From positions 21,328,001 through 21,392,000 of the forward strand of contig CM059440.1 of assembly GCA_030390025.1 (NCBI GenBank): DNA of 64,000 bases, written 5' to 3'. The translations under genes and the position numbers were made by a program. Under the pieces are notes generated by a model that ran no database searches, was not told the origin of the DNA, and saw only the letters and a list, made by a program, of their open reading frames with translations. Shown here piece after piece: positions 13,501-55,600 of this stretch. Within the stretch, counting starts at the first letter, position 1, and every line of letters starts with the position of its first letter. This stretch comes from Squalus acanthias. Taxonomy: Eukaryota.

Positions 13501-16500
13501 ACCAGCTCGTCGCACACGTTCCTCAGCTCACTGGACGGGTAGGATTTCATCGACTGGCTCCGCTTGTGCTGCTCCCCGGCTCGAGTCAGGATACTCGATT
13601 TCTGCAGCGACAGAACAGACTGTGAGGCCCAACACACAGAGAAACAGGCAAAGTAACTGGGAGCCTCGAACCCCCTATGGTGCCGGGGGCCGCAACCCCC
13701 GACCATGCCGTCACCCCTGCGCAACCCCCGACCTTGCCGGGAGCCTCGACCGTGCTGGGGGGGCGCGACCCCAGAATGCGCTGGGAGCCATGAATCCCCC
13801 GAGGCAGAGTTTAAGTTTTATTTCAAGTTGGAGCGTATATTTAACTATTCGCAGTTACCGATGCAACTGAGCTGCTGGCTGCAAGATGGAATGTCCAACA
13901 CCACAACAATTCGCAGTTATACAGCAACTTTAACATCGTAAAACATCCCAAGGCATTTCATAGGGTCATCATTGACACCGAGCCACACATCACTAAGAAA
14001 CAAATTATCTGGTCATTATCACATTGCTGGGAGCTTGCTGTGCACAAGTTGGCTGCCGTATTTCTTACATTGCAACAGTGACTGCATTTCAAAAGTACTT
14101 AATTGGCTGTAAAGTGCTTTGGGATGTCCTGAGGTCGTGAAAGGCGCTATAGAAATGCAAGTCTTTCTTTCCCTGTATCAAGCTTATTTTGATGTAATGT
14201 TGCAAGTTTTGTCAGTTACAGGCTGGAGAGAGAAACAAACTGAAACAATGCCTTGCGATTGGTTCAGCGCAGGTCCGACGGTTCCTTTTAAAATTTTAGT
14301 GCTGGGATATTCAAAATCCAGGCAGTCCCAGTAACACTTTTCAAGGATATTCAAATCAAAGGGTCTATTTGACAATCTCAAAGAAACCAATTTGTTTGAA
14401 ACTGCTGAAAAATTATTTTGAATTTCCATGAAACAGTTTAATTAGGTTTCTACAGTGGGAAGAAATTCTATAAAAAGAAACACTATTATTTATAAAAGAT
14501 TAGCTAAGATCGTGGAGCTGCAATCTTTTTATTTTGTCCACTGACAGGTGTAAATATACAACCACTAATAGGTAAATATATACCTATAAATACGCAAATA
14601 TATAACTACATTTTATAATGTTCCTTATGTGCTTGCTCATCCTTTGATATGACTGGAGTGAGAGTTCATTGAGCCAGAGGGTAATTCCAGTTGCAAAAGC
14701 AATTATCAGACGGGGTTTGCTGTTCATTTACTGGGCGCATTACCCAAAGCTTAGTTAAATCTCAAGGCAAGGAGAGGCACTGTCGAAGGGTTGGGGTGTT
14801 GGGCCTCACGGTGAGAGCGATGCAAGATACAAGAGCGGAAATAATCTATGGTAAGAAGGTTAGAAAAGACCTAGAAACATACCAGCCATTATAAAATTCC
14901 AAGTTGTTGCTTTCAGTTACTCATTAACAGGAACAAAAAAAATCAAAGTAAAATAATAAACATGTAACTGAACAAACGACCACACTGACAAGACACAAAA
15001 AGTGCGAGTAATTGCAGAAGTGTGAACTTCAATTGCAGGGAAAGGTTAGAAAAACGTCAGAGTAGATCACAGGCGCACTCCGGTGGCTGTCGCCACTACT
15101 GCAGAGAATTGGAAACATACAGGTTAATGAAAAGAGGCCACCGACACCACAGGCTTTATCCTAGCAGAGTCAGTAAGATAGCGTGCGTGCTCAGTATTGA
15201 GTACAGCCCAGTGACTGGTCACTTCAGGGTCAGTTATTGGATACACGGAGTACAGCCCAGCGACGGGTCACTTCACACCTTGGAACTGTGGCTGATGACA
15301 AGTCATTTGGAATAAAAATTTACTCCTCAACCAACAGCACTAAAACAGATCATTTGGTAATTTATCTCATCGCTGTTTGTGGGAGCTTGCTGTGCTCCAA
15401 TTGGTTGCCGTATTTCCTACATTACAACGGTGACTACACTTCAAAAGTACTTCACTGGCTGTAAAGTGCTCGGAGATGTCTGAGGTTGTGAAAGGCGCGA
15501 TAGAAATGCAAGTTATTTCTTTATTTTCTTCATTATTCCACAACGCAAAAGGTGATTTGACCCAGTGTGTCTATCAGCTCTTCACTCGAACAATCTAAAT
15601 GTAATCCCACTGCCCAGCTCTCTCCCCATATCCCTGTATCTTCTTCAGTTTCCCACTGCCATCCCACAGCCAGGGGGAGCCCTAGTCATTGCCTCAGACG
15701 CTCTCGGGGACATACTCCAATTAGCGGAGAGCGATCATGCTCCACAGCATCATAGCTTCAGTTGGCATCACTTGCGCCGTGCTCTGTTCAATGTGTTGAT
15801 ATTACACTGGCGTAGATTTACCTTAAACTTAATGTTGTTGCTGATGAGGATGTTTCCCTTCATGAACTCCTTCTCATTCCCTCGGTTCTCCGTGACGACA
15901 GGGTAGGCATGATGTGCTGTGGTGCGCAGAATACTGACCAGTGATTGGATTCGGGTGTGAGGATAGACATAGGTTAGATTTGGCTCCATGATATCGCTGG
16001 CTGTCAGTCTGGGATTGAACATAAATATAATCAAACTCCAGTCTTTGAGACATGGTTTAAAACAATGTTCCCTGTAAGCTCCAGGGATCCCGTGCAGCCA
16101 GCTCTTCAATACAAAAACTGCGCACGCGCTGTATTTTGAATGGCCATCGCCGCATCTTAAAGGGTCCGCGCAGGGCTAAACAAAATTAGAGGGAAGTTCT
16201 GACGAAGGGTCATCGACCTGAAACGTTAACTCTGTTTCTCTCTCCACAGATGCTGCCTGACCTGCTGAGTATTTCCAGCATTTTCTGTTTTTATTTCAGA
16301 TTTCCAGCATCTGCAGTATTTTGCTTTTGTAAAATTAGAGGGAACACTGGTTTAGAAGTACTTTTACAATGTTTCCCTCTCAGCCTCACCGAGTGGCCAG
16401 CCTGGAGCCACTGCACAATCTCAACAGTTACTCTTTGCCCAAAGTGGAATCGCAGAACTCCGTTTCTGACCCGGGGAGGGAATCCCCCAGGACAACAACC

Positions 16501-28500: not shown

Positions 28501-31500
28501 CATTGGACAGATTCACAAACTCTGGAATATGGGAAAGAATGGGTGAAAGCTGGAACCTTGCAAATCACTGCTGCAGCATTCCCAAGCTCATTCTGTAATA
28601 GTCAGTGTGCTTCCTGCACCCCAGGACTCCCGCAGTGCTGGACTGCGCCACACGGTGGTTAGTGTTCTGAACAAGGCCTGGTCCAACAACACACACAGCA
28701 TTAACTCAGCTGAAGGCAGGAACAAGGTGAGTTCAGTTAACTGAGCATGGAGCCGGCTCGGTACCACACTGGGCCAGTTACCCAAACAAACCAGGAGGAG
28801 GGGGACTTCTAACCAAAGATCCAGTAAATTTATTGTACCACCAGGCAAGATCCTCAAAAAATGACTGGGGTGGGGGGATTTTTTTTGGGGGGGGGAGGGA
28901 GAGAGAGATCTGCTTGAAGGGTATCCGGTTTGAGGGGAAACCTGGTTTTGGTGGTGGGGGGGGGGGGGAACATTGGGTAACGTGACTTAATGCAACTACT
29001 TTAAACGCTCCATAAATCAATATTTTAAGCTTAACTACAGAACCAAAAGAACCTCAGGAGTAACTAACCCGACAATTTGGAGGCACAAATGATTAAAGAG
29101 AGTCACATCCCAAACACATTACATGTAAACGCAGATACATTCCGTTACCTGCCGGCTCCGCTCACTCACCTGGGGCAGCCCTGCTCCCACCACTGCTCCA
29201 CTGTGAATCATCGGGCCTTCCTTCCCCACAAATAGTCCTGGAAAACAAAATCACATAAAAAAGTTTGTACGGGGAGCACCAGACACTGCCCGAGACAGCG
29301 GGGCGAGAGGCAGCACCCACTGGCGAGGGAAACAGCCTCACACCAAGAGAATTGAATCAGCTCAAACTACAGCAGGACAAGAGGTGACCAAGTGCCTGCT
29401 CATAGTCAGGAAACCTGGGAAATACTGTTTCTGCTACACTCCAGGAACTCATGATAATTAAAAACCCACTGCATTTCCACATTGAGCTCCCAGGTCCAAT
29501 AAAAACAAAATCTGTTGTATTTAATCATGTGTCAGCGATCCCTACAAACTAGAAAAGAAGCAATGTATTGACACAGTATTTTTTTTTTTTTTTTTTTAAA
29601 AACAGTGGCATGCATTAAAATGCACCTCAACTTGAAACTGTTCCTGCTCAGTTTACACACAGCACACGCGACTTAGTGGAGGAAATCAGGAGGCTTTTAT
29701 TATGGGTCTGTAATTGAATCGCAAGGAGCAGAGAAAGTAAAACCCAACCACTACAGCTTGCCGACTCGCCACACGTGATCCTTCTATCATTTGTATTTAG
29801 CATCATTAAAATGAAACCAACACCTTACTGAGCACCCCGTAATAAACGCACTGCGGGGATGGGTGGGCAGAAACCGATCCACCAACAGTGGCAGCGGGTA
29901 TAACCGAACAGGGGAGCAGAGCGAAGCGACCAAGAGCTTGTTTATTGCACTTTGAGTAACTGGGTAATTCCTGTACAGATATAATTTTACCGCCTGAACT
30001 TTTTAATAATTTACTTTGGTAAAAGCCTGAGCTCCATTAGCACCAAATTAAGTAGAATAAGGAAGGGCTGATAGCGGTCAGCACATTATAAAGCTTGCAG
30101 ATGTCACTCGGGCAGAACAGCAGCATGTCAGACCCACACCAACACAGTGGGAATAAAAGATAGCTTATTTCTGATAAAAGGCCCCACCCAAAATATCAAG
30201 CCGCCTTTATCTCTTGGATTCTGATCAATCTGCTGCATATTTTCTGTATCGTTGCATTTGATGGGGTTGCTTGTGATTGTGATGAGGTTTAGCACATTTC
30301 CCCGAGCCCTGCATCAAACACAGAAACAAACCCGTGCTGTCCTTTACCTCCAGCCACGCAAAAGAGCACGCCCACTGCTTTACAGACCAGGGTCCGCAGC
30401 CTCACGATCCCAGGGATCTTCACCCCATTTAGGTAGCATTTGATTTCAGGAATTCCAGATCCTGCTGCAATGGGCTGTGAAGCAGAAAGACATTTTTCAA
30501 AACAAAGCGATGCCCTCCCCAGCCCTGGCCAAATGACGAGAGCAAGAACAGAACACAGACGGTCATAACCAGCCTGGCCCCTGCAGAGACCACGCAAAAC
30601 TTCTTTGAAGTTTTTGTGCAGGGAGACGGTGACGTGCACTGCCATCAGCAATGCCTGGGCTGAGCAGCAGATAGCGAGAGCAGTGCCCCACTATCTAGGG
30701 ACGCACCAGTGCCCAGGAGACATTGAACATCATTGCTGCCCTGTTATCATTTAACAGTTACATTATTTTTTGATGTAAAACACAAAACAAGCCCAATGTG
30801 GTGGAAACACGCTTGCGATTCTTACCTCAATCAGCACCAACAGGCTGGCCAGGAAAATGAAACCCATGTTGAATGCAAGGATCTCGAGGAGGGAGAGTGC
30901 AAGACAGCCCCGCTCACTGCAATCTTCCACCGCTGCAAGGCATGAAATCAGGGAAAATACACGGCACACAACAGTCAAAATACCTTTGGGATCACAGGTT
31001 CCCTCTACGACCACTGCACTCTCACAATAATCTACATAAACGCACTACCGAAAGCAGAGCAGGGAGACAGCTGGGGTGAGGGGACGAATCAGGGACGCCA
31101 CATTAGAGCAATTCAAAAACTTTAGAAAAACAACCAGGCAGAATTGTCAGGAAAACGTGGGACTCTTGGAGAGGACAGCGAGAACCAACACATCTTCATC
31201 AGAGGGCAATTCCCAGCACTTTCATCATGGGGAGGAGAAATAATCCTATCCTCTCCGTTCCTCGCTCCACACTTCTTTTATTCATTCATTCCTGGGATGT
31301 GGGCGATGCTGGCAAGGTCAGCATGGTGTGTGACTTGGATGGTCACTTGCAGGCGGAGGTGTTCCCATGCTGCCCTAGTCCTTCTAGGTGATGGAGGGAG
31401 TTGATTTGGGAGGTGCTGTCGAAGAAGCCATGCAGGTGCAGCAGGCAGTTAAGAAGGCAAATGGTATGTTGGCCTTCATAGCAAGAGGATTCGAGTACAG

Positions 31501-34500
31501 GAGCAAGGATGTCTTGCTGCAGTTGTACAGGGCATTGGTGAGACCACACCTTGAGTATTGTGTGCAGTTTTGGTCGCCTTATCTGAGGAAGGATGTTCTT
31601 GCCATGGAGGGAGTGCAGCGAAGATTCACCAGACTGATACCTGGGATGGCAGGAATGACGTATGAAGAGAGATTGGGTCGATTAGGCTTATATTCGCTAG
31701 AGTTTAGAAGAATGAGAGGGGATCTCATTGAAACTTATAAAATTCTAACAGGACTAGACAGACTAGATGCAGGAAGGATGTTCCCGATGGCAGGGGACTC
31801 CAGAACCAGGGGTCACAGTCTAAGGATAAGGGGTAAGCCATTTAGGACTGAGATGAGGAGGAATTTCTTCACCCAGAGTGTGGTGAACCTGTGGAATTCT
31901 CTACCACAGAAGACAGTTGAGTCCAATTCATTAAATATATTCAAGAAGGAGTTAGATATATTTCTTAAGGCTAAGGGGATCAAGGGATATGGGGAGAAAG
32001 CAGGGACAGGGTACTGAATTTGGATGATCAGCCATGATTGCATTGAATGGCGGAGCAGGCTTGAGGGGCCGAATGGCCTACTCCTGCTCCTATTTTCTAT
32101 GTTTCTATGCTAAGTTGCTTCAGTGGTTCCTGTTGATGGTACACACTGCAGCCATGGATAATGAAGCTGGTGGATGGGGTGCCGATCAAACAGGTTGCTT
32201 TGTCCTGGATGGTGACGAGCTTTATGAGTATTGTTGCAGTTGCACTCGTGCAGGAAATTGGAGAGCATTCCATCACACTCCTGACTTGTGCCTTGTAGGT
32301 GGTAGAGAGGTTTTGGGGGAGTCAGGATGTGAGCCACTAGTTGCAGAATACCCAGCCTCTGATCTGCTCTAGTAGCCATGGCATGTGTGTGGCTGGTCCA
32401 GTTTATGGTCAATGACGACCCCCCAGGATGTCGATGGGGGTACTCCACGATGGTAATGTCAATGAATGTTAAGGGAACATAGGCACAGGAGTAGGCCATT
32501 CAGCCCCTCGAGCCTGTTTCGCCATTCAAATTGATCATGGCTGATCTGTATCTTAACTCCATCTACCTGCCTTAGTTCCGTAACATTTTCTGAGGAATTG
32601 CGAATGGAGCTGAACACTGTGCAATCATCAGCGAACATCCCCACTTCTCACCTTATGATGGAGGGAAGGTAATTTATGAAGCACTGAAGATGGTTGGGCC
32701 GAGGACACTGCCCTAAGCAACTCCTGCAGCAATGTCCTGGGGCTGATGTGATTGGCCTCCAATGACCACAACCATTTTCCTTGTGCCAGGTATGACTCCA
32801 GCCACTGGAGAGATTTCCCCCTGATCCCCACTAACCTCAACTTTACTAGGGCTCCTTGGTGCCACACTCGGTCAAAAGCTGCCTTGCTGTCTAGGGCAGT
32901 CACTCAACTCCAGCTCTTTTCTCCATGTTTGGAACAAAGCTGTAATGAGGTCTGGAGCCAAGTGGTCCTGGCAGAACCCAAACTGAGCATCAGTGAGCAG
33001 ATTATTGGTGAGCAAGTGCTGCTTGATAGCATTGTCGATGACACCTTCAATCACTGTGCTGATGATTGAGAGTAGGCTGATAGGGCGGTAATTGGCTACA
33101 TTGTATTTGTCCTGCTTTTTGTGGACAGGACATACCTGGGCAATTTTCCACATTGTTGGCTGGATGCCAGTGTTATAACTGCACTGGAACAGCTTGGCTA
33201 GAGGCACGGCTAGTTCTGGATTACATTCCAGCTGTAACTCCCTCCTGGCTATCGGTCATTCTATATTCTCTCTCTCTTACACACTGATTCTCCTCGAGTC
33301 ATTCTCCAGGTCCTGACATTACTGCAAGTGAAAGGATACATTGCCCAATAATTTGGTACTTGAGGTCTGAGAAGAGATGAACAAAGTAATCGATGAAGAG
33401 CCCAACCTGAAACAAAGCAGAGTGAAATAGTCATTTAAAAACAGTTAATGAAATCCAATCACCACAAGCGGTGGCTGGCAGTTTATTATCTGTCTCCGAA
33501 CACCCCTCAGTGCCTGACCCTTTAACAGAAAAGCTGTGTCAGATTGGCTCAGTTTGTAGCACTCCTGTCAGAGTCAGAAGATCATGGGTTCAAGCCCCAC
33601 TACAGTACTTAATCACATAATCCAGGCTGACACTCCACTGCAGTACCGAGGGAATGCTGCATGGTTGGAGGTGCTGTCTTTCGGATGAGGCATCAAGCTC
33701 TTCAAGTAAATATTGAAGATCCCAGGCAGTCTTCCTGATGTCCCGGCCAACATTCCTCCCTCAACCAACACCACAAAGAGCAAATTAATTGGTCACTCAG
33801 CTCATTACTGTTTATGGGATTTTGCTGTGTGTTGCCACATTCACCCGCATTTCAAAGTAATTCACTGTATGTGAAGCACTTTGAGAAGTATCCCAACATT
33901 TGAAAAGCAGGATAAGGTGCTATATAAGGCGCTATAGAGTAGGACCTGTGGGGACTGGTGTGAGATGATGTTCAGGACAAATGCTCTTAGCTGAACACTG
34001 TGCAAATGGGAATGTTAGCACCTCAGTTAACAGCAAATCCTTACTTACATATTTCATTTATATTAACACAAAACAACTTGCATTTATATAGCGCCTTTAA
34101 CATAGTAAAACATCCTAAGGCGCTTCACACCAATTACCAAACAAAATTTGACACCAAGCCACATTAGGAGATATTAAGACAGCTTGGTCAAAGAGGTAGG
34201 TTTTAAGGAGCGTCTTCAAGGAGGAGAGAGAGGCGGAGAGGTTTAGGGAGGGAATTCCAGAGCTTAGGGCCCAGACAGCTGAAAGCACGGCCACCAATGG
34301 TGGCGTGATTAAAATAGGGGGTGCGCAAGAGGCCAGAGTTGGAGGAGCGCAGAGATCTCGGAGGGTTGTAGGAGGTTAGAGAGATAGGGAGGGGCGAGGC
34401 CATGGAGGGATTTGAAAATAAGGATGAGAATTTTAAAATTCAAAACAAATGTATAACAAACATAACCACCAACAATCTGTAGAAACAATAAGTGACAAAT

Positions 34501-37500: not shown

Positions 37501-40500
37501 CTCCTAAAGACAGTGTTCAAGGGGAACTTCCAGCTATAACAAAGCCTGTCTTCCAGATCTACTGCAATACCAGTCACACACAGCACTTCTGGCAATGTGA
37601 AGATTAGAATTGCAAATGCAAATTCAGGTTTAAACAAGAGTTTCTCCGTATTCAGATTGCAATATTGTACACCAGCAGATTTAACAAGGGTAACTAATCT
37701 ATTCAAGACAGCATGTGCCAGAACTCCTTCCCCATGGATATAAGATGAGGCCGGCGGGAGTTTGAAAGAACATCTGTTGAGCAAAGAGGGAGCTGCCAGC
37801 TGACTTGAGTTTTATTAAAACATTAAACCATTTGGTCTTTGAACAGACACGTGTACGGCCTAATGGTACCTCAAAAATCTCTCTTGGACTGAGCTTTGTG
37901 GCACAGCAGAAGTGTGGGAGCAGTTAGTCTGTCTGAGCTCCCAGCTGATGACAGTGCGCGGCTGGGGAAACTCAAAAATGGAGGGAAGAAAATGAATGAT
38001 AAAAAACAGTTGCCGGTTCCCTCCCTCCCCCAGAGTATATGTAGCAGATGTGCAGCACACAGGAACAAATGATGGTTGGATGCACACTTCCCCTGCACCA
38101 GTTCACTTTTATACCTCATAATCTTTCCGTGGCAGAATTTCATCCTCTTCCTCCTGTGTCTCTCCCAGAATAGTCTGTCACAAATAAAGAGAGTTTTGCA
38201 TTAATTCCAGTCCAGTTAAATACCAGTCAATCAAGAGCCCAATAACTGGAATATCAGCTTTGCTTTCTCTTCTCAAAGGGCCTGACATAAATTGATGAAT
38301 TCCGATGATAGCAGTTGTAGAAATATAAAGTTTTACAGAAACTGAACAGCTGACTCACAACAGACTACACGTCCCCTCCTCACCATTGCATTATCCCCAT
38401 ATAAACCACCACCTATATAATGCTGGGAGTCAGCTGAAATTTGCGAGTCTGAGATCGTTAGATATTTTTTGGGTAAGGGTATCAAGCGATCTGGGGAAAA
38501 GGCAGGTAAATGGAGTGGAAGTACAGAACAGCCATGATCTAATTGAACAGGCTCAACGGGCTGAATGGCTCACTCCTCCCATGTACCCTCAGCATGACAC
38601 TCTGTACTCACTACCCTTGTTCTTTCTTCCTTATTTCCATTCAGAATCATCACAGCATCATGGTCAGTGGCCAAATTGCAGCAGGTCAAGAATAAACAAA
38701 CACAGGAAATGTTCACTATCTACCATCAGTCAGGGCACTGACTGGAGCACTGTGATCTCACGATCAGTCAGCTGCAGCCTTTCAACCCCCGCTGACCAGG
38801 GGCTTTAACGCTCTGCTACCCGCCCCCACCCACCCTGTTGACCGGGGGGCTGTAACCCTCCAATACCCTCCCCACTGACTAGGGGCTGTAACCCTCCGAT
38901 ACCCACCGCGCTGACCAGGGGCTATAACCATCCAATACCCCCCTCCCCGCTGACCGGGGGCTATAACCCTCAGATGCTCCCCCACCCTGCTGACCTGACC
39001 AGAGGCAGTAACACTCCGAAAACACCCCCCCCCCTCCCACCCCACCCCGCTGACGGGGGGCTGTAACCCTCCAATGCTTCCCCCCCCGGGAGCTATAACC
39101 ATCCGATAACCCCCCACCCCGCTGACCAGGGGTTGTAACCCTCCGATACCCGCCCCTCCCAACCCTGCTGACCAGGGCTTGAAGCCTTCAATACCTCCCC
39201 AACACCAAGTTTGGAAATATTACATCACTAATCCACTATCCTCCTGCAACAAACCCATTCCATCTCTGAGCCCGGGAACATTGGAAACGTTACCCATTAC
39301 TCTCCTCACTCAGGTCCCTGAGGAGTTACCACAGTTAACGCTAAACATCACATTACGTGCGGACTCACTCGGAGTTTCATTAGTGGCTCAGAAAAAAAAA
39401 TTGGAAAACAGATAGACAAGAACATAATAAATAGGAGCAGGAGTAGGCCATACAGGCCTCTTGCGCCTGCTCAGCCATTCAATAAGATCATAGAAGCATA
39501 GAAGATAGGAGTAGGCCATTCGGCCCCTCGAGCCTGCTCTGCCATTTAATGAGATCATGGCTGATCATCCAAATTCAGTACCCTGTCCCTGCTTTCTCCC
39601 CATATCCCTTGATCCCTTTAGCCTTAAGAAGTATATCTATCTCCTTCTTGAATATATTTAATGAATTGGCCTCAACTGCCTTCTGTGGTAGAGAATTCCA
39701 CAGATTCACCACTCTCTGGGTGAAGAAATTCCTCCTCATCTCAGTCCTAAATGGCTTACCCCTTATCCTTAGACTGTGACCTCTGGTTCTGGACTCCCCC
39801 GCCATCGGGAACATCCTTCCCGCATCTAGTCTGTCTAGTCCTGTTAGAATTTTATAAGTTTCAATTAGATCCCCTCTCATTCTTCTAAACTCTAGCGAAT
39901 ATAAGCCTAATCGACCCAAAATCTCTTCATACGTCATTCCTGCCATCCCAGGTATCAGTCTGGTAAATCTTCACTGCACTCCCTCCATGGCAAGAACATC
40001 CTTCCTCAGATAAGGCGACCAAAACTGCACACAATACTCAAGGTGTGGTCTCACCAAGGCCTTGTACAACTGCAGCAAGACATCCTTGCTCCTGTACTCG
40101 AATCCTCTCGCTATGAAGGCCAACATACCATTTGCCTTCTTAACCGCCTGCTGCACCTGCATGCTTACCTTCAGCGACTGGTGCACAAGGACTCCCAGAT
40201 CTCGTTGCACTTCCCCTTTTCCCAATCTATTGCCGTTCAGATAATAATCTGTCTTCCTGTTTTTGCCACCGAAGTGGATAACCTCGCATTTATCCACATT
40301 ATACTGCATCTGCCCAATCACCCAACCTGTCCAAATCATACTGGAGTTTCTCTGCCTCCTCCTCACAGCACACACGCCCACCCAGCTTTGTGTCGTCTGC
40401 AAACTTGGAGATATTACATCTAGTTCCCTCATCTAGATCATTAATATATATTGTGAATAGCTGGGGTCCTAGCACCAATCCCTGCAGTACCCCACTAGTC

Positions 40501-42116: not shown

Positions 42117-42185
42117 GTTAGGTCGCGGGGCCGCGCAGTTCCGCTTCTGTTACCTTTGATGTAAAGTGTCGGACGCATTGGGGAC

Positions 42186-42590
42186 CGGAGAGCTGCCTGT
42201 CTGCTGGTGACCGGGGGCTGTCCTGCTCGGGGCCAGGAACTGTCTGTCTGCTCGGGGTTGCCTGCCTTCTGGGGGCCGGGGGCTGCCTGTCTGCTGGGGG
42301 TTGGGGGTTGTCTGCTGGGGGCCGGAGAGCTACCCGTCTGCTGGGGGCTGCCTGCAGGGAACTGGAAAGCTGCCTGCCTGTCTGCTGGGGGTTGGGGGCT
42401 GCCTGTCTGCTGGGGGTTGGGGGCTGTCTGCTGGGGGCCGGAGAGCTGCCTGTCTGCTGGGGGTTGGGGGCTGCCTGTCTGCTGGGGGCTGCCTGCAGGG
42501 GACTGGAAAGCTGCCTGTCTGCTGGTGACCGGGGGCTGCCTGTTTGCCTGCTGGGGGCTTGGGAGCTGGTTGTCTGCTTGGGGGGGCCGC
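42186..42590. repeat. G-rich minisatellite (GCTGCCTGTCTGCTGGGGG..) next to the promoter
   Basis: Visible tandem units. Confidence 0.85.
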
Positions 42591-42903
42591 CGCTGGCCGA
42601 GCCCATTCATTCGGCCCTGGGTGGGTCTGCATTCTTAATGAGGCTGCGAAGTTGGCTCTGTGCAGGGCAAAGCGATGCGTCTGGAGCCGGGCGAATTTGT
42701 AGATCATTCGGGTGATCACTGGAGCTGGGGATAAATGTGGCGACTCTCTGATTCCACTACTCTGATCCCGTTTTCAAGGAGGCGGTGATTCTATTCCAGC
42801 CAGCAGTGGTAATGGAGTGAGACTCGCGGACATCGGAATTAGGACAGTATCCAGTGTCGGCGTCAAGCGTTTCCAAGTCAACTAACTATTCCACAGGTAG
42901 GTT

Positions 42904-43200
42904 AGAGTAAAGCTCCCACTACACTGTCCCATCAAACACTCCCAGGGCAGCTACAGCACGGGTTAGATACAGAGTAAAGCTCCCTCTACACTGTCCCATC
43001 AAACACTCCCAGGGCAGCTACAGCACGGGTTAGATACAGAGTAAAGCTCCCACTACACTGTCCCATCAAACACTCCCAGGGCAGCTACAGCACGGGTTAG
43101 ATACAGAGTAAAGCTCCCTCTACACTGTCCCATCAAACAGTCCCAGGGCAGGTACAGCACAGGTTAGATACAGAGTAAAGCTCCCTATACAATGCCCCCA
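42904..43200. repeat. 67-bp tandem repeat, ~4.4 copies
   Basis: Units at 42960, 43027, 43094 and 43161. Confidence 0.92.
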
Positions 43201-43632: not shown

Positions 43633-44629
43633 TGCAAGATTCTGAGATTCATTTCTCACATGATCTGTACTTGTGGGTCTGAGTGTGATTGTGCAGCGGT
43701 TTGTTTTGTGATGTCGCTGCTCAGAAGTAAATTGAGCTTCAAACTTCTTCATTCAGACTCTGGGATTTAGTCCTGCTCTTGGCGCTCTGTCCCGACAGGT
43801 GGTCAAACTCACGAAAATCCAACACAATCTCAGATCGGGGTACTAAATGTTACAGATAATATATTAATATTGTGTGGACCCAGTAATGAAGATCAGAACA
43901 TTACAACAGATGAAAACCGAAACCTTAAAAATATGATTTCCGTGAACCACGCCGATATCGCAAACACTTGTTTTCAGAAGGACGGAGTTAGGTTTAAACT
44001 CACTTGAAGATGTAACCTTCGGTAGTCCGTTAACTAAATATCCACAATGTGATTTCACGGCTGGCGGGGATAAGTCAGTTTATCGGCGCTAACCCGCACC
44101 TCGAGGATTTTCGCTTCTCCGGTAACATTTCTTAGTTACTTTCGCCAGTTTGTAACTTGTATTGTGTGTGAATATCGTTGTATCGAATCTACCTGTAGTT
44201 GAGCACATTTCAAATACCGTTTGAATTGTAACTTTCTCTTTCCTCAAACCACCAACAGGACAAAGTGTTCCATGGAATGAAGGTACTCGGTGTAGAATCA
44301 GAGGTTCATCCTTGGCTACTGGTTCAGATGGGCGATGTTACAATGGCTGCTTTAAATGTTTGGCTGCGAGTCTGGGTGTATCGGCCTTTTTATAAATGGG
44401 AGATCGCTGCCAGGCCGTGGGGCTTGTTACCGGGACAGTCCGATATAAAGGACCGTGTCTCATCCATGCCTTTGTTACTTCTAGACTTGACTATTCCAAC
44501 TCACTCCTGGCTGGCCTCCCACATTCCACCCTATGTAAACTTGAGGTGATCCAAAACTCGGCTGCCCGCGTCCTAACTCGCACCAAGTCCCGTTCACCCA
44601 TCTCCCCTGTGCTCGCTGACCTACATAAG

Positions 44630-44840
44630 CAAAAGTGAGAAGTCGCACAACACCAGGTTATAGTCCAACAGCTTTATTTGAAATCACAAGCTTTCGGAGC
44701 GCTGCTCCTTCGTCAGGTGACGAAGGAGCAGCGCTCCGAAAGCTTGTGATTTCAAATAAAGCTGTTGGACTATAATCTGGTGTTGTGCGACTTCTCACTT
44801 TTGTCCACCCCAGTCCAACACCGGCATCTCCACATCATGG
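44630..44840 (+). mobile_element. Palindromic Penelope-like insertion (family B), 86-bp arms plus 37-bp unique tail
   Basis: Arms 44630-44715 and 44718-44803 with 1 mismatch. Direct repeat CTACATAAGCAA at 44621-44632 and 44841-44852. Inserted in an L2 fragment. Confidence 0.8.
44684..44720 (-). ncRNA. Minimal type-I hammerhead ribozyme motif (family B)
   Basis: Minus strand TCAC-CTGACGA-A-GGAGC(AGC)GCTCC-GAAA-GCT-T-GTGA: helix I TCAC/GTGA, palindromic helix III AGCT. Confidence 0.75.
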
Positions 44841-45409
44841 CTACATAAGCAACGCCTCGATTTCAAAATTCTCATCCTTGTTTTCAAATCCCTCCATGGC
44901 CTCGCACCTCCCTATCTCTATAATCTCCTCCAACCCCACCGAGATATCTGCACTCCTCTAATTCTGCCCTCTCGAGCTTCCCTAGTTATAATCGCTCAAC
45001 CATTGGTGGCCGTGCCTTCTGTTGCCTAGGCCCTAAGCGCTGGAATTCCCTGCCGAAACCTGTCCACCTTGCTTACCTCTCTTTCCTCCTTTAAGATGCT
45101 CCTTAAAACCTACCTCTTTGACCAAGTTTTTGGTCGCCTGCCCTAATTTATCCTTATGTGGCTCGGTGTCAAATTTTTTGTCTTTTAATACTCCTGTGAT
45201 GCGCCTTGGGACATTTTATTACGTTAAAGGCACTATACATACAAGTTGTTGTTGTGTCCTGCGGGCCTGAATCCTTCGTGAGGCAAGAGTGGAGCTGGAG
45301 AGAGAAACATGAGGCTCGTCATTTCCAGTAATTGGTCCTATATTTTGAAGAATTCTGCTACAGAATCAGAGTGAGAGATTAGTATAGATGCCTTTGACCA
45401 AATAATAAC

Positions 45410-48960: not shown

Positions 48961-49450
48961 AGAAGGTTTGGCGAGGTTCTACTGGGAAGCTACCCTGAAC
49001 TACAGATCGTGAAACCAAACAATATGTTGAGGGTAGTCTGTCTTGTCAGCTGATCAACAATAACCAGAATCTCTCCCGACGGAGATTGGGAGCTTCTGAA
49101 TCTTTTTATTCAAGTACAATAGTACTTATACAACGCATCAGTTACATAGTAAACCATTACATTCATTGATGATTGGGAGCTTCTGGCTTTTTGATTCTGT
49201 CTTGGCGAATCTTGGCTCCTGTCCAATATGTAAATTATGGAAACGGCAGGCTCACAGCCAACAGGCACATGGGTGGGGAAGAGCGAGAGGGGAAAGAGCT
49301 TCAGAACCTTAACCATTAGACAATGCAGCGGCCTCGACATCACCAAACTAGTTCTGGGCTCGGGCGCCGTTCCCTAATATAGCGTGTTGGTTGGAATCTG
49401 CAGGTCCAATTCATTCAAACGTTGAACTTTCTGCTTGCAGGTAACTAGTG

Positions 49451-49668: not shown

Positions 49669-52600
49669 GTAAGGCTGGTAATACTGAGCAGCAATGAATG
49701 GCCGGGTGCACTGAAGCCCAGCAGGAGGATGGGGTTGTTGTGCTCCATTGACTGGGCCAGTAGGATTGCTGTGAGGTGGAGAGGAGCTGACTAGCATCTT
49801 AAAGTGGGGGAGGGAATGAGGAGAAATACTGTTTTATAAAGTAAATAGTCCCTCAAACTGGATCTCACAAGTTGTTCTGTCGTTGGGTGTTGGTTATTCT
49901 CTATAATCATAGCCTTGCTTAGAACTAAACATAACCCATACTTTATTCAGACCTGCCTGCTTTTGTTTGTTGGAAACAGGAGTGTGTGATTTATAGAATT
50001 ACATATCTTACTGGTTTATTATATAGACATATTGTCGAATGTAGTGGGATGGCTGCATCACTTCTGAAATGATGGACTGTTGGTGCTGGAGCGGCGCACT
50101 GGAGTCGGAGCGGGGTGTGGCGGTGCTGGAGCTGGAGCGGGTGCCGGAGTGGGGTGGGGTGTGGTGGTGTCGGAGCGGGTGCCGGAGTGGGGTGGGGTGT
50201 GGCGGTGCCGGAGCAGGTGCCGTGAGCTGGAGTGGGGTGTGATACAGTGGTGCCGGAGCGGGTGCCGTGTGTAGTGTGCCAGAGTGGGGGTGGTGTTGGA
50301 GCCGGAGCGGGGGCGGTGTTGGTGCCAGAGCGTGTGCTGGAGCTAGTCCACTGCCTCACTGGTTGGCGGCCGTGGCTCCCCACAACGTGAATTTCCAATC
50401 GCTCGGGGAGATCAGAGGAACAGATCTATCTGCAAGAAACTAGCTGGAGTGGAATAGCAGAAGCTGAGGGATAAATTATTCGGGCGGTGAGAGGTGCATG
50501 TCACAAGGGAAAACTGAAAGGTGTGTTAGAGATGAGCAGCGGAATTTTCCAGAGAGTACGTCAATGTCCCGGAATAAATGTGGACAGAATCAACCTAAAT
50601 TTCAAGGGACCAGGCTGGTTTGATACTGACTCCTGTGTCCTCCTGTTAACATCATCAAAATAAATGCACCTAACACAAGGTGGCCACACGGTTCTCGCTG
50701 ACTGTCCAACCCCCTCTCTCTTGTGTGGTTGTGGCTGGTTTAATGCTTGCAGTCATTTTTTAAGTTCTCCTGTCAAGAGTCCTTCCCCTGAAGGTACTGA
50801 CCCGGGCTGGGTCTAGTTCCACAGGTCCTGGCCTTTCCTGAAAGTGATGGTTCTTGCTGAGTTACAAATCCTTCAGTCGTTTATCAAAATACAAACCTAG
50901 ACACATGTTGGTGGGAACATCACAGCTGAACCTAACGCTCACTGAGTCACTGGAATAGGACCAGGAGTGAACCCTGGCCTAGTGAATTTTTTTTGTTTCC
51001 TCAGTAACATGGGGGTACTGAGGCCAACTGCCGCACTTCTAATCCAGCCCCGGTGCAGATCAGCTAACCTGGTACAGACTAAGTAACTTCCTGATTTTAT
51101 GGCTCACTGGTTAAACTTGCTGAACCATTGGAGGGGCCAAACTTGGGATTTGATTCTATTGTGCAGTGAGATGTTTTGTTGCGAGTTGCTGACTGTGGCC
51201 TTTGTTTGGTTAGGTTTGACCGTATGGCTGTCGGTGGGCCGCTCTTCATTGATGTGACCTGGCATCCAGCTGGGGACCCAGGCTCTGACAAAGAGACTTC
51301 CTCCATGACCATAGCCAGCACAGCAGTAAATTACTGCGGCCTGGAGACATTGCTGCATATAACCTGCTGTAACCAGACCAAGGATCAGATCACACAGCAC
51401 CTGCATAAGGCTCGTAGCCTGGGGCTGAAGAACATACTCGCACTCCGTGGTGGTGAGATACTGATCAGTGTTCTACTTCTAACCTCCTCCCTTTACATGT
51501 TTCTCTCTCTTGCTGCCCCCCAACCCTCAGGGATGCTCCTGGTTCTTGCTTCATGTCTCTGAGCTCAGTGTGTGGGCGAATCCACTCCCCATCACCTACC
51601 TCAATTATAACATCCATAGACATGGGGAGGATGATGATCAGAAGGAACTTGGATTCATGTTGTGAGAATCAAAGGGCCATCGGCAAGTCCCTCTTGTTCT
51701 ATTGCAGGAATGTCCAAATGTCGCATCCCTGGAGTCGCGAGGGACACAAATAAAATTTAAACCTGAAGTTTTTCTATTGGGTTTACTGGGGTTCAACACC
51801 AGTGAATCTGGCAAAATTATTCCAATTACCACTGGCCTCAAAAACCATGCAAATAAACCAGTGCCCTGAGAACCCAACTCAGGCCAACATGAAAACCATC
51901 CAATGAATCTATAGATCTTGGATTGCTGATGTTAACAGATCTCAGTTTTCTGATTTAAATATATTCACCATGAGCCAACCATACCAAGAATGACCCTTTT
52001 CAAAGCTCCTGGTCTACAATATTCAAACAGGACTATTCGGCGAGTAAGAAATATAAACACAAATGTAACTGAGGTTTCTGGGCTTGGCTACTTCACACCG
52101 CCGGTCTCATCAGCTTTCCAAGAGAATATCCTGGTATGTCTAAATAAGTACTTAAAATAACATGGGGGAGAGGAAGGGCAAAGATGCGTGGCACTCATTG
52201 ACCTGAAATATTGACACCTTCCTGTACATAATAACATCATAGTAAAACACTGTTTGGTGCAGGGATGAGGGAGAATCTATAAACCATTCTCAACCCATCA
52301 GCCTCACATTGATTAATTTGAATGTGGTACAGTCTATTCTATACTTTTCCACATTATCCAAGTACGCTGGGGACGGAGGCAGGAATGAGATGGTGGGAGG
52401 TGCTGTTCAGTGCTCTGATGGGATGTGTGAGCCTTTAACAGAGGCTGTTATTTTGCAGATCCCATGGGTGATGAGTGGAAGACTGAAGAAGGAGGATTCA
52501 GTTATGCCAGTGATTTGGTCAAACACATTCGCTGCGAGTTTAACGATTACTTTGACATCTGTGTCGCTGGTAAGCTCAGCTCTGCAAACCCAGTTTCTTT

Positions 52601-55600
52601 GCATCCCATTCTCTACGTCTTAAACTAGGCAAGGTGCTGATTTCAATCTTGTTTCCTTGCAGGTTACCCAACAGGGCACCCAGAGAGTGACAGTTACGAG
52701 GAGGATCTCAGACACCTGAAGGCAAAGGTAGATGCCGGCTCAGACTTTATCATCACCCAACTCTTCTTCAAACCTGAAACCTTCCTTGCGTTTTTCAAGG
52801 ACTGTCGTGCAATTGGAATTACTTGTCCTATTCTGCCAGGAATCTTTCCCATTCAGGTACGTATGAACAGAGGCCTGGAGGCATCCCTGATCCCAGGTGA
52901 GCATCCTATACTGAGGTGACATGTCTTGTGGTGTAGGCCTTGCACTGGAGCAGTAACTTCACCAAGTTTCCTGTAGGAAGAGAGTGCTCCTCACTCCTTG
53001 TGCTGATGCAGTTCAGGTTATTGACATCAATCTCATTTTCCCTTATCCTGTGGCAGGGGTATCACTCATTGCGACAGCTGATCAAACTCTCCAAGCTACA
53101 GGTGCCACAGGAAATCAAAGACATCATTGACCCAATCAAGGATAATGATGCTGCTATTAGGAATTATGGTATTGACTTGGCCACTGACATGTGCAAGGTT
53201 CTGCTGGAATCGGGGCTGGTGCCAGGGCTCCACTTCTACACCCTGAACAGAGAGATGGCAACCATAGAGATTCTGAAACGACTGGGACTGTGGACCGAGG
53301 ACCCTAGGTGGGTTTGAACAGATAATATAACTACGTACACAAGTACATGATCTCTGCAATTCACTAGACCAGGACTAGCAGAAATCTTAATGATACTAGC
53401 TGGCCAATTAGCGTCATTTTGTTTAAATTCTGGATGTACCTGCCTTTCCCTTATTTATTGATTAACTTGCATCACTATATTGGTGTAGGACATGATATTA
53501 CTTAATCCCAGAAAGGAGATTATTGGTTTACAGTGGCTGTACTGTAACTGTGATCTATAAGAGTCCAGGAATTCAACGTTTGAATATTTCCTAGCTTTGT
53601 ACCATTCTTTTAGAAAGCTGTCATGGAGTCGGGTGTGTCTAACCTTTTAATAGTCTCTTTCTCTCCCCTCCCCCAGACGATCCTTGCCGTGGACCATCAG
53701 CGCCAATCCAAAGCGAAAGGTCGAGGATGTCCGACCAATATTCTGGGCTTCGAGGCAGAAGAGTTACATCTACAGAACCCAGGATTGGGATGAATTTCCC
53801 AATGGAAGATGGTACAATCTTTAAATCATTACTGGTGTTTAGACCATGAACTATTGTGTAAAGGTGCAGTATGAGAGCAGCTCATCACACTCGTAAGTTT
53901 ACAATTGTAAATGTTTGGCCTGCTACTAGTGTTGCCAGTTGGGTTTCGTTAGTGTGGTGTGTGGAATTTTCATGCTATATCCACTTCAACTGTGGAAAAA
54001 TACCCAGGAGCACAATTCTTGATTCAGTCCTTCCAAACTTGGGTTGTGTCTGGAGCGAGCGTTTTGAGCTGTGTAACACCAGGTTCAAGTGCTGGTGTTT
54101 ACAGGTCTCTCATCGTCAATTTGAGGGGATGAATATGGAGTATTCCAACATTAAAGTATATTGGCTAAAGTGTGGATTTATTTTCTCTCTTGTATATTGG
54201 TACCAATTCACTAAATAGATCCAATGGCAACACTGGAGAGTTTGTTTAATTTCCCGAGCCCCTAAAGCTTGCAAACAATTGTACAGAAGATATTTACAGA
54301 TAAAATCAAGTTGAACTCGATTGGTGGCTTTGCCCTAAACTAGTTGATCAGTGTCTAGATTCTGTGTGATTTTATATTCGATGTTTTAGGGGGAACTCAT
54401 CATCTCCTGCATTTGGTGAGCTGAATGATTACTACCTCTTCTATCTGAAGAATAACTGTCCCAAGGAGGAGCTGCTGACGATGTGGGGGGAGGAGCTGGT
54501 AGATGAAGAAAGCATCTTTGAGGCCTTCACGACGTATATCACTGGGCAACCCAACCGCAACGGGAAAAAGGTAATAGAACTAGTGACCAAGTAAAACTGT
54601 GCTAAGAAGTTGCTGTAATATTTATTGTAACTAATTCATAAGACAAGAGTTAAGTTACCAATCCTGTAGCAGTTTATGGAAACTTAACTTTAAGTTAAAA
54701 ATGTCATTTGATGCTCATTTCTGACTTGCCCAATTCAGTGTTTAGATACAGCTGCTACCAGGTGAAGTTACACCGTGCAGGAGAATGAGGCTTGAGGCTT
54801 GAAAACTTCAAACGGGTGACATTGCTGATTAATGTCAAGATATTTCAATATTCAAGCTCTCTTGACATATTTATGTCCTATAAATGTAAATGTATATGGA
54901 GTTGTCAAAGTCCAGAACCTCCAGTGCAAGCCTTGGGGTTTCTGTGCTACTCGCGCCTCCATTGAGAGTTAGTCGGTATTTCAGACAGCCACAGTCTTCC
55001 TGTACAACACAATTTGCCAATTTAACTAGCACCATCTGTCGAGCTGGTATTAGCAACTGTTTTTGATATTGTCTTGTTTCCCAGCAAGAGCTCCAGCAAC
55101 ATCCACAACAGTGACCGTCATTCTTCAATACTGTGATTCCTCATCCCTCTGACTTGTAGCAACATGATGCGGAGATGCCGGTGTTGGACTGGGGTGGACA
55201 AAATTGAGAGGTCGCACAACACCAGGTTATAGTCCAACAGTTTTATTTTAAATCACAAGCTTTCGGAGTTACAACTCCTTCGTCGGGTGAACACTTCACC
55301 CGACGAAGGAGTTGTAACTCCGAAAGCTTGTGATTTAAAATAAAACTGTTGGACTATAACCTGGTGTTGTGCGACCTCTCAATTTTGTAGCAACATGTCA
55401 GATGATCTGGTCTTATCTGATCTTCAGGTTGGGGATCTATATCCAAAAAATATTTAATTGAATCATCTTACAAATATCTGGATAAATGAGAACTTTCCCC
55501 TTGTGTGCTAAAGAATTTCAGGATAAAGGAGTTTTTTTCCTGGCCAGTATATCTGGAAATTGTTCAGTAAACTTGTTTTGAACTTGAGAATCTACAGAAG

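Follow-up and report, generated by a model that had tools for sequence, protein, structure and literature searches.

Head-to-head stubs of a Penelope-like retrotransposon in Squalus acanthias probably join two reverse transcripts

How does a retrotransposon come to insert as a mirror image of its own beginning? A 64,000-nt stretch of Squalus acanthias contig CM059440.1 (hereafter, the window) raises this question at positions 44,621–44,852, where a short palindrome carries a hammerhead ribozyme motif. Inverted pLTRs, a one-sided tail of 30–40 bp and a minimal hammerhead are published features of Penelope-like elements (PLEs; Arkhipova et al. 2013, PMC3846280; Craig et al. 2021, PMC8557442; Cervera and De la Pena 2014, PMC4209133). 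The mechanism by which Penelope elements give rise to head-to-head repeats, and the RNA strand involved, are treated as open questions in PMC3846280 and in Frangieh et al. 2024 (PMC11167929). The head-to-head structure is already in print; what is added here is the proposed origin from two cDNAs of capped RNA. The locus itself is ordinary repeat DNA, and the interest is carried by the mechanistic record that its family has left.

Anatomy of the insertion

The insertion lies within a 12-bp direct repeat (44,621–44,632 and 44,841–44,852), its target-site duplication, the left copy of which shares its final 3 nt with the left end of the element as a microhomology. Between the repeats stand two 86-bp palindrome arms (44,630–44,715 and 44,718–44,803) with one mismatch (44,657/44,776) and a GG spacer, and a 37-bp tail (44,804–44,840, plus strand) is present on one side only. 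The tail-bearing arm (44,718–44,803, plus strand) is clipped at +1, counted from C3 of the hammerhead core; G replaces C3 and helix I is absent. The tailless arm, with the GG spacer and a TCA/TGA microhomology included, spans 44,630–44,720 on the minus strand and copies the 5′ leader of the element from −4 (C3 at 44,716) to the upstream reverse-transcriptase (RT) start. It holds an intact minimal type I hammerhead motif (44,684–44,720, minus strand) made up of helix I TCAC/GTGA, the core CTGACGA with an extra A, helix II GGAGC/GCTCC, GAAA and GCTT, with a palindromic AGCU; its features are those of PMC4209133, and cleavage is predicted between 44,688 and 44,687. The tail ends on an ATG (44,837–44,839) that opens the element open reading frame (ORF) in two longer copies (L079 and L102), and the 4 nt after the tail match element and target alike.

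When the element and one of the repeats are taken out, the flanks (checked over 44,480–45,000, plus strand) translate as the ORF2 end, followed by the 3′ region, of what we take to be an L2-type LINE fragment. In this fragment 12 nt, or four codons, are missing precisely within the later-duplicated target at 44,621–44,632, a gap spanned by 12 of the 15 alignments shown against other L2-type copies; because most aligned copies carry the missing nucleotides, the deletion at the site predates the insertion. A sequence-only reading of the window had already given the arms, spacer, tail and direct repeat, the intact minus-strand core beside a clipped plus-strand copy, and the insertion into an L2 fragment, and our measurements agree with it throughout.

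The computed fold of the palindrome lies far beyond chance (z −25), and the minus-strand hammerhead in isolation folds as a hammerhead with a z of only −1.46. An Rfam search of the stub gave no match at the gathering score; the sub-threshold matches were generic hairpins, those to microRNA families reflecting only the long hairpin. The 44-kb feature is a Penelope-like retrotransposon stub, two 5′ leader copies placed head to head inside a 12-bp duplication.

Family and parent element

The stub is one of thousands of small mirror-image insertions of one Penelope-like retrotransposon. The 3.7-Gb genome contains 6,129 exact matches to the tail and 61,004 to a loose hammerhead pattern; the reversed control of each gave 0. 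We sampled the first 90 exact-tail matches, all on one contig and biased to young copies. Sixty were head-to-head pairs; the 30 without an adjacent inverted arm were dropped, as was L038 as a duplicate of L037, giving 59 copies with a median target duplication of 12 bp. Copies L001–L030 were left out of junction counts, their query having favoured the junction of the 44-kb stub. L037 and L038 (about 3.97 and 3.98 Mb on one contig) are identical in both insertion and flanks and lie 17 kb from each other; they are either a segmental duplication or an assembly duplicate.

The design common to the stubs is a minimal hammerhead leader followed by the optional 37-bp tail. In copy L117, a parent ORF of 551 aa holds an RT domain (PF00078, E 1.1e-09, 38.7 bits against a cut-off of 29.6) and is directly followed by the start of the same pLTR; other longer copies run upstream into the ORF end with its cysteine linker and GIY-YIG-like motif. 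As the upstream sequence is the ORF end and the ATG of the tail is the ORF start, each arm copies the 5′ leader of the element. The linker between RT and endonuclease, CHGNLCKTC in L117, reads CX4CX2C and falls within the Neptune/Nematis definition CX2-5CxxC (PMC8557442); the linker is of Neptune type. At the C terminus, a VVYLIRC...WYIG motif was recognized by eye, with no Pfam match there at E 0.01, and a solved-structure search with the parent ORF gave no match. Of the marks of an EN+ PLE, an RT ORF, an inverted pLTR with its 37-bp tail and a hammerhead within the pLTR are present.

The PLEs of PMC3846280 and PMC8557442 share with this family the head-to-head inverted pLTR, one-sided tail and target duplication, the TATA-like and TCACT initiator-like motifs, and an RT with a Neptune/Nematis-type cysteine linker and, here as a candidate, a C-terminal GIY-YIG-like domain; here, unlike there, most sampled copies are ORF-less stubs of ~210 bp. 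Two other assignments were rejected. In non-LTR retrozymes, hammerhead-bearing units follow one another as tandem direct repeats, whereas the 44-kb stub is a single inverted pair; and a MITE or other DNA transposon does not fit repeats whose centres differ between copies and one end of which has a tail outside the repeat. The retrozymes (10.64898/2026.07.22.740005) are nevertheless alike in being non-coding, PLE-derived and equipped with a type I hammerhead.

Hammerhead conservation and a second stub

The sequence-only reading had held that the ribozyme fold is under selection in the source elements; that it is conserved there is borne out. Among 140 motif matches from the loci and the window (56 distinct), loop II takes 12 forms and the stems remain paired. 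We aligned 35 distinct motifs, leaving out one added window motif and 21 of the 56, most of these being clipped at the junction. In this alignment 96.2% of cells pair; C-G to U-A changes occur in helix I in 9 of the 35 motifs and in helix II in 3, with G-U wobbles elsewhere. Covariation holds: the paired fraction was reached by 0 of 500 shuffles, but the number of covarying pairs was reached by 203 of 500. The rows are related, and the covariation in helices I and II is two inherited events, not a statistic.

In L044, L051, L058, L060, L089, L215, L218, L239 and L242, the two arms disagree in one-base insertions at the loop of helix II. Discordance is much commoner for such insertions than at other polymorphic sites, and the helix II hairpin is perhaps an RT error hotspot.

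A second stub of a different subfamily lies at 55,154–55,397 on the minus strand, matching the first in the opposite orientation and with the same design: perfect 94-bp arms, a 3-nt spacer, the tail on the left and a 13-bp duplication (55,154–55,166 and 55,385–55,397). Its helix II reads GGAGT/ACTCC against GGAGC/GCTCC at 44 kb, as had been noticed before; absent from the earlier description was that both arms carry a CCGACGA core, with U4 changed to C. The helix II change is a real subfamily trait, found in 1,070 arms genome-wide, and by-eye counting found the CCGA core in 74 of the first 100 of these, with the U4C state concordant within nearly all close pairs. The core boxes, covarying helices I and II and palindromic helix III of a minimal type I hammerhead are together in the minus-strand copy at 44 kb, and are broken in the plus-strand copy by the loss of C3 and in the 55-kb copy by U4C.

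Since a U4C-bearing subfamily still spread, catalysis need not be what is kept. A canonical hammerhead core is not required for mobility, in line with the anole Poseidon element PAc, whose hammerhead core mutants insert normally in vitro (PMC11167929). The hammerheads of PMC4209133 resemble ours in the short helix I, the extra base before helix II, G10.1-C11.1 and the palindromic 15.2–16.2; ours differ in a 5-bp helix II and in the U4C subfamily. In that study, monomers of comparable minimal hammerheads failed to cleave. In the stubs the ribozyme appears to be a passenger. The study also describes hammerhead pairs on opposite strands, 100–700 bp apart; its available text gives no mechanism for them.

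Junctions and the start of the RNA

The inversion junction had been said to fall repeatedly at the 5′ edge of the ribozyme. The pattern holds, with 81 of 118 arm ends in the 59 copies lying between −12 and +7 from C3; the cause is probably another, the boundary itself lying at an initiator A at −7, outside the fold. On this single base, the A of TCACTTC, 23 of the 118 ends fall, and in long copies it stands 30 nt below the first T of a TATATAT, the spacing of a TATA-initiator promoter. Genome-wide, where counting required two non-native bases upstream and so omits from the −7 class the common copies with T at −9, we found 244 starts at −8, 1,019 at −7 and 1,292 at −6, with ~45 of 100 of the −6 starts read, by our interpretation, as one four-base microhomology class. 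Counted by eye over 100 listed starts of each class, G precedes the −7 start in 78 and the −8 start in 44. Full-length LINE-1 insertions likewise bear an extra G derived from the cap (PMC11702581). Against this, the partner arm can account for most of the Gs in front of −7, a lone C/G spacer might simply be the base native to −8, and an extra G is found in only 3 of 8 partnerless copies.

The boundary points to RT run-off at a capped RNA start, as read from the DNA alone; its likely cause is transcription starting 7 nt upstream of the core, together with microhomology, rather than the ribozyme. As the D. virilis Penelope promoter is TATA-less (PMC2377424), the TATA/initiator type is not general. 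A splice acceptor at −7, an idea taken from the D. virilis intron, was rejected because the native upstream sequence has no AG.

Self-priming on an antisense transcript, the published reading of head-to-head palindromes in rotifer Penelope elements (PMC3846280), would also make a palindrome, and TATATAT reads both ways. Here the arm ends map to one base after G, at a sense-strand initiator, a stop for which an antisense template gives no reason; PMC3846280 and PMC8557442 invoke antisense self-priming or endonuclease resolution instead. We regard antisense self-priming as highly improbable.

The ribozyme could instead set the junction itself, through RT stalling or a cleaved RNA, with host selection then keeping the intact copy off the sense strand of genes. 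Junctions do adjoin the core, and the predicted cut site has 385 starts, compared with 293 and 129 for its neighbours, controls that themselves hold point-mutation and deletion classes. However, ~62 of 100 cut-site starts belong to a GTGA microhomology class, and the site is not a clear run-off point. Added to the boundary at −7 and to the uncleaved monomers of PMC4209133, this leaves the ribozyme-and-selection account improbable; its second half is taken up with the host gene below.

One cDNA or two

The main competitor to two cDNAs is a single cDNA that folds back, or is closed into a hairpin, and copies itself, endonuclease resolution then leaving the tail at one end only (for the tail, see PMC8557442). 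It is favoured by the many junctions on short self-complementary words, that of the 44-kb stub included, and by the agreement between arms: at site +44, the A/G pairs agree in 52 of 55 copies and differ in 3, against ~26 expected under random pairing, so that arms are nearly always of one subfamily. This concordance fits copying of one arm from the other; two cDNAs would need RNAs from one source or gene conversion, and events with two sources must be a minority, about one in eight by the +44 count.

Junction geometry speaks against folding back. Both arms reach −7 at 515 loci, and the first 50 of these include 29 with a single C/G, 8 with no spacer, 1 with a single A/T and 5 that read C..G; in 38 of them, therefore, the spacer is 0–1 nt, too short for a snap-back loop, and the 5 have one extra base per arm. 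At the 44-kb stub, the GG spacer belongs to the tailless arm, so that this arm cannot have come from fold-back of a tail-primed cDNA, and a tailless cDNA cannot supply the tail. Among the 59 copies, the tailless arm reaches farther 5′ in 21 and the tail arm in 26; the former class, to which the 44-kb stub belongs, cannot derive from fold-back of a tail-primed cDNA.

Differences between arms point the same way. Insertions in the loop are confined to a single arm, which may be that of either side; L037 and L109 have arms that differ at two sites; and L227, flanked by one 13-bp duplication, unites arms of two subfamilies that are distinguished by four linked sites. Because either arm can be clipped and some copies have arms of two subfamilies, two independent cDNAs are likely, and we consider fold-back unlikely.

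The outer ends lie at fixed places, about +83 without the tail and +121 with it. At the two ends, microhomology with the target averages 1.6 and 1.8 nt, against 0.41 and 0.47 in shuffled controls (n = 51, after exclusion of 8 of the 59 copies with duplications <10 bp), which could also come from end joining. What fits best is a pair of priming events on RNAs that usually stem from the same source locus.

Proposed mechanism

We propose that the stub probably consists of two independent reverse transcripts of capped sense RNA, primed by both strands of one staggered cut and joined head to head. The structure, the family, the parent ORF, the target duplication and the positions of the ends are shown by the sequences; the steps that we infer would run as follows. 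A TATA/initiator promoter in the pLTR would give rise to a capped RNA whose first base lies 7 nt before the hammerhead core. The RT-endonuclease, probably as a dimer, would cut both target strands ~12 nt apart; aided by a few nucleotides of pairing, priming would take place from one target end at the inner site (~+83, without the tail) and from the other target end at the outer site (~+121, tail included). As these sites would be only 90 and 130 nt from the RNA 5′ end, both cDNAs would reach the cap and run off, often gaining a C opposite it. Their 3′ ends would then be joined bluntly or through 1–4-nt microhomologies (TGA with TCA in the 44-kb stub), and joining would trim one arm, so that one hammerhead is clipped at random. 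Full-length copies would require a longer-than-unit transcript.

Much of this parallels PAc in vitro (PMC11167929), where two RT start sites bound the tail, both target strands are cut and extended from them, hammerhead cleavage is not needed and the protein is predicted to dimerise. The systems differ in that the PAc ORF starts inside the hammerhead, whereas ours starts at the end of the tail, and in that PAc primes without homology, whereas both ends here show 1–2 nt of microhomology. Joining of the two extended PAc products is not addressed in the main text of that report. LINE-1 twin priming (PMC11702581) is also alike, in that both target ends prime, the internal junction is end-joined and a cap-derived G is found; it copies two parts of one RNA, whereas the two arms here are copies of a single leader, drawn occasionally from two subfamilies. 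Compared with the tandem direct repeats of the retrozymes (10.64898/2026.07.22.740005), the pairs here are inverted and their centres vary by copy.

More tentatively, PLEs might in general insert by a two-RNA, double target-primed reaction with an RT dimer and joining at cap ends, the hammerhead mainly pairing RNAs rather than cutting them; we think this possible, though doubtful. Such pairing may rest on the palindromic AGCU and a strand-swapped helix I, in the manner of a retroviral dimerisation signal. If true, it would explain together the inverted pLTR, the one-sided tail, the concordance of arms and the spread of U4C.

Joining of two cDNAs at capped 5′ ends would account for a structure of PLEs that has long been puzzling, and in the literature searched, which covered few subscription journals, we did not find a capped or two-cDNA origin for PLE palindromes. 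The thousands of young stubs record the likely 5′ end of the RNA, its likely cap base and occasional two-template chimeras, and give base-level predictions that can be tested in the existing in vitro system.

Host gene context

The exons of the MTHFR domain lie at 51,209–53,287 on the plus strand, with the first coding exon starting at 49,441 behind a splice acceptor. Head to head with this gene, a CLC-family gene occupies about 17,800–41,950 on the minus strand; its coding region begins near 41.9 kb, next to GC-rich sequence that contains tandem repeats (42,179–43,198). From its motifs and synteny, this chloride-channel gene is likely CLCN6. The 44-kb stub is probably in MTHFR intron 1; contigs of related organisms over the first coding exon did not locate the non-coding exon or the RNA start.

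The earlier reading had also proposed that the strand read during MTHFR transcription carries the disabled copy. The clipped plus strand of the 44-kb stub fits this, and tandem retrozymes are reported to be depleted in Xenopus introns (10.64898/2026.07.22.740005). Against it, the intact arm varies among the 59 copies (both arms in 19, tailless only in 18, tail only in 12 and neither in 10), both arms of the 55-kb copy carry a changed core, and whichever strand is transcribed, the RNA is predicted to fold as a single 86-bp hairpin (−168 and −172 kcal/mol) that buries both motifs. The strand claim is not supported: selection cannot be read from a single plus-strand copy that is clipped.

Two further repeats were seen in the window. 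At 16,199–16,223 (plus strand, opposite to that of the CLC-family gene) lies a hammerhead-like core of a different repeat family, with a helix II unlike that of the stub. A 657-bp inverted pair at 31,429–32,085 and 39,507–40,163, 96% complementary and 7.4 kb apart, is probably two young LINE 3′ ends.
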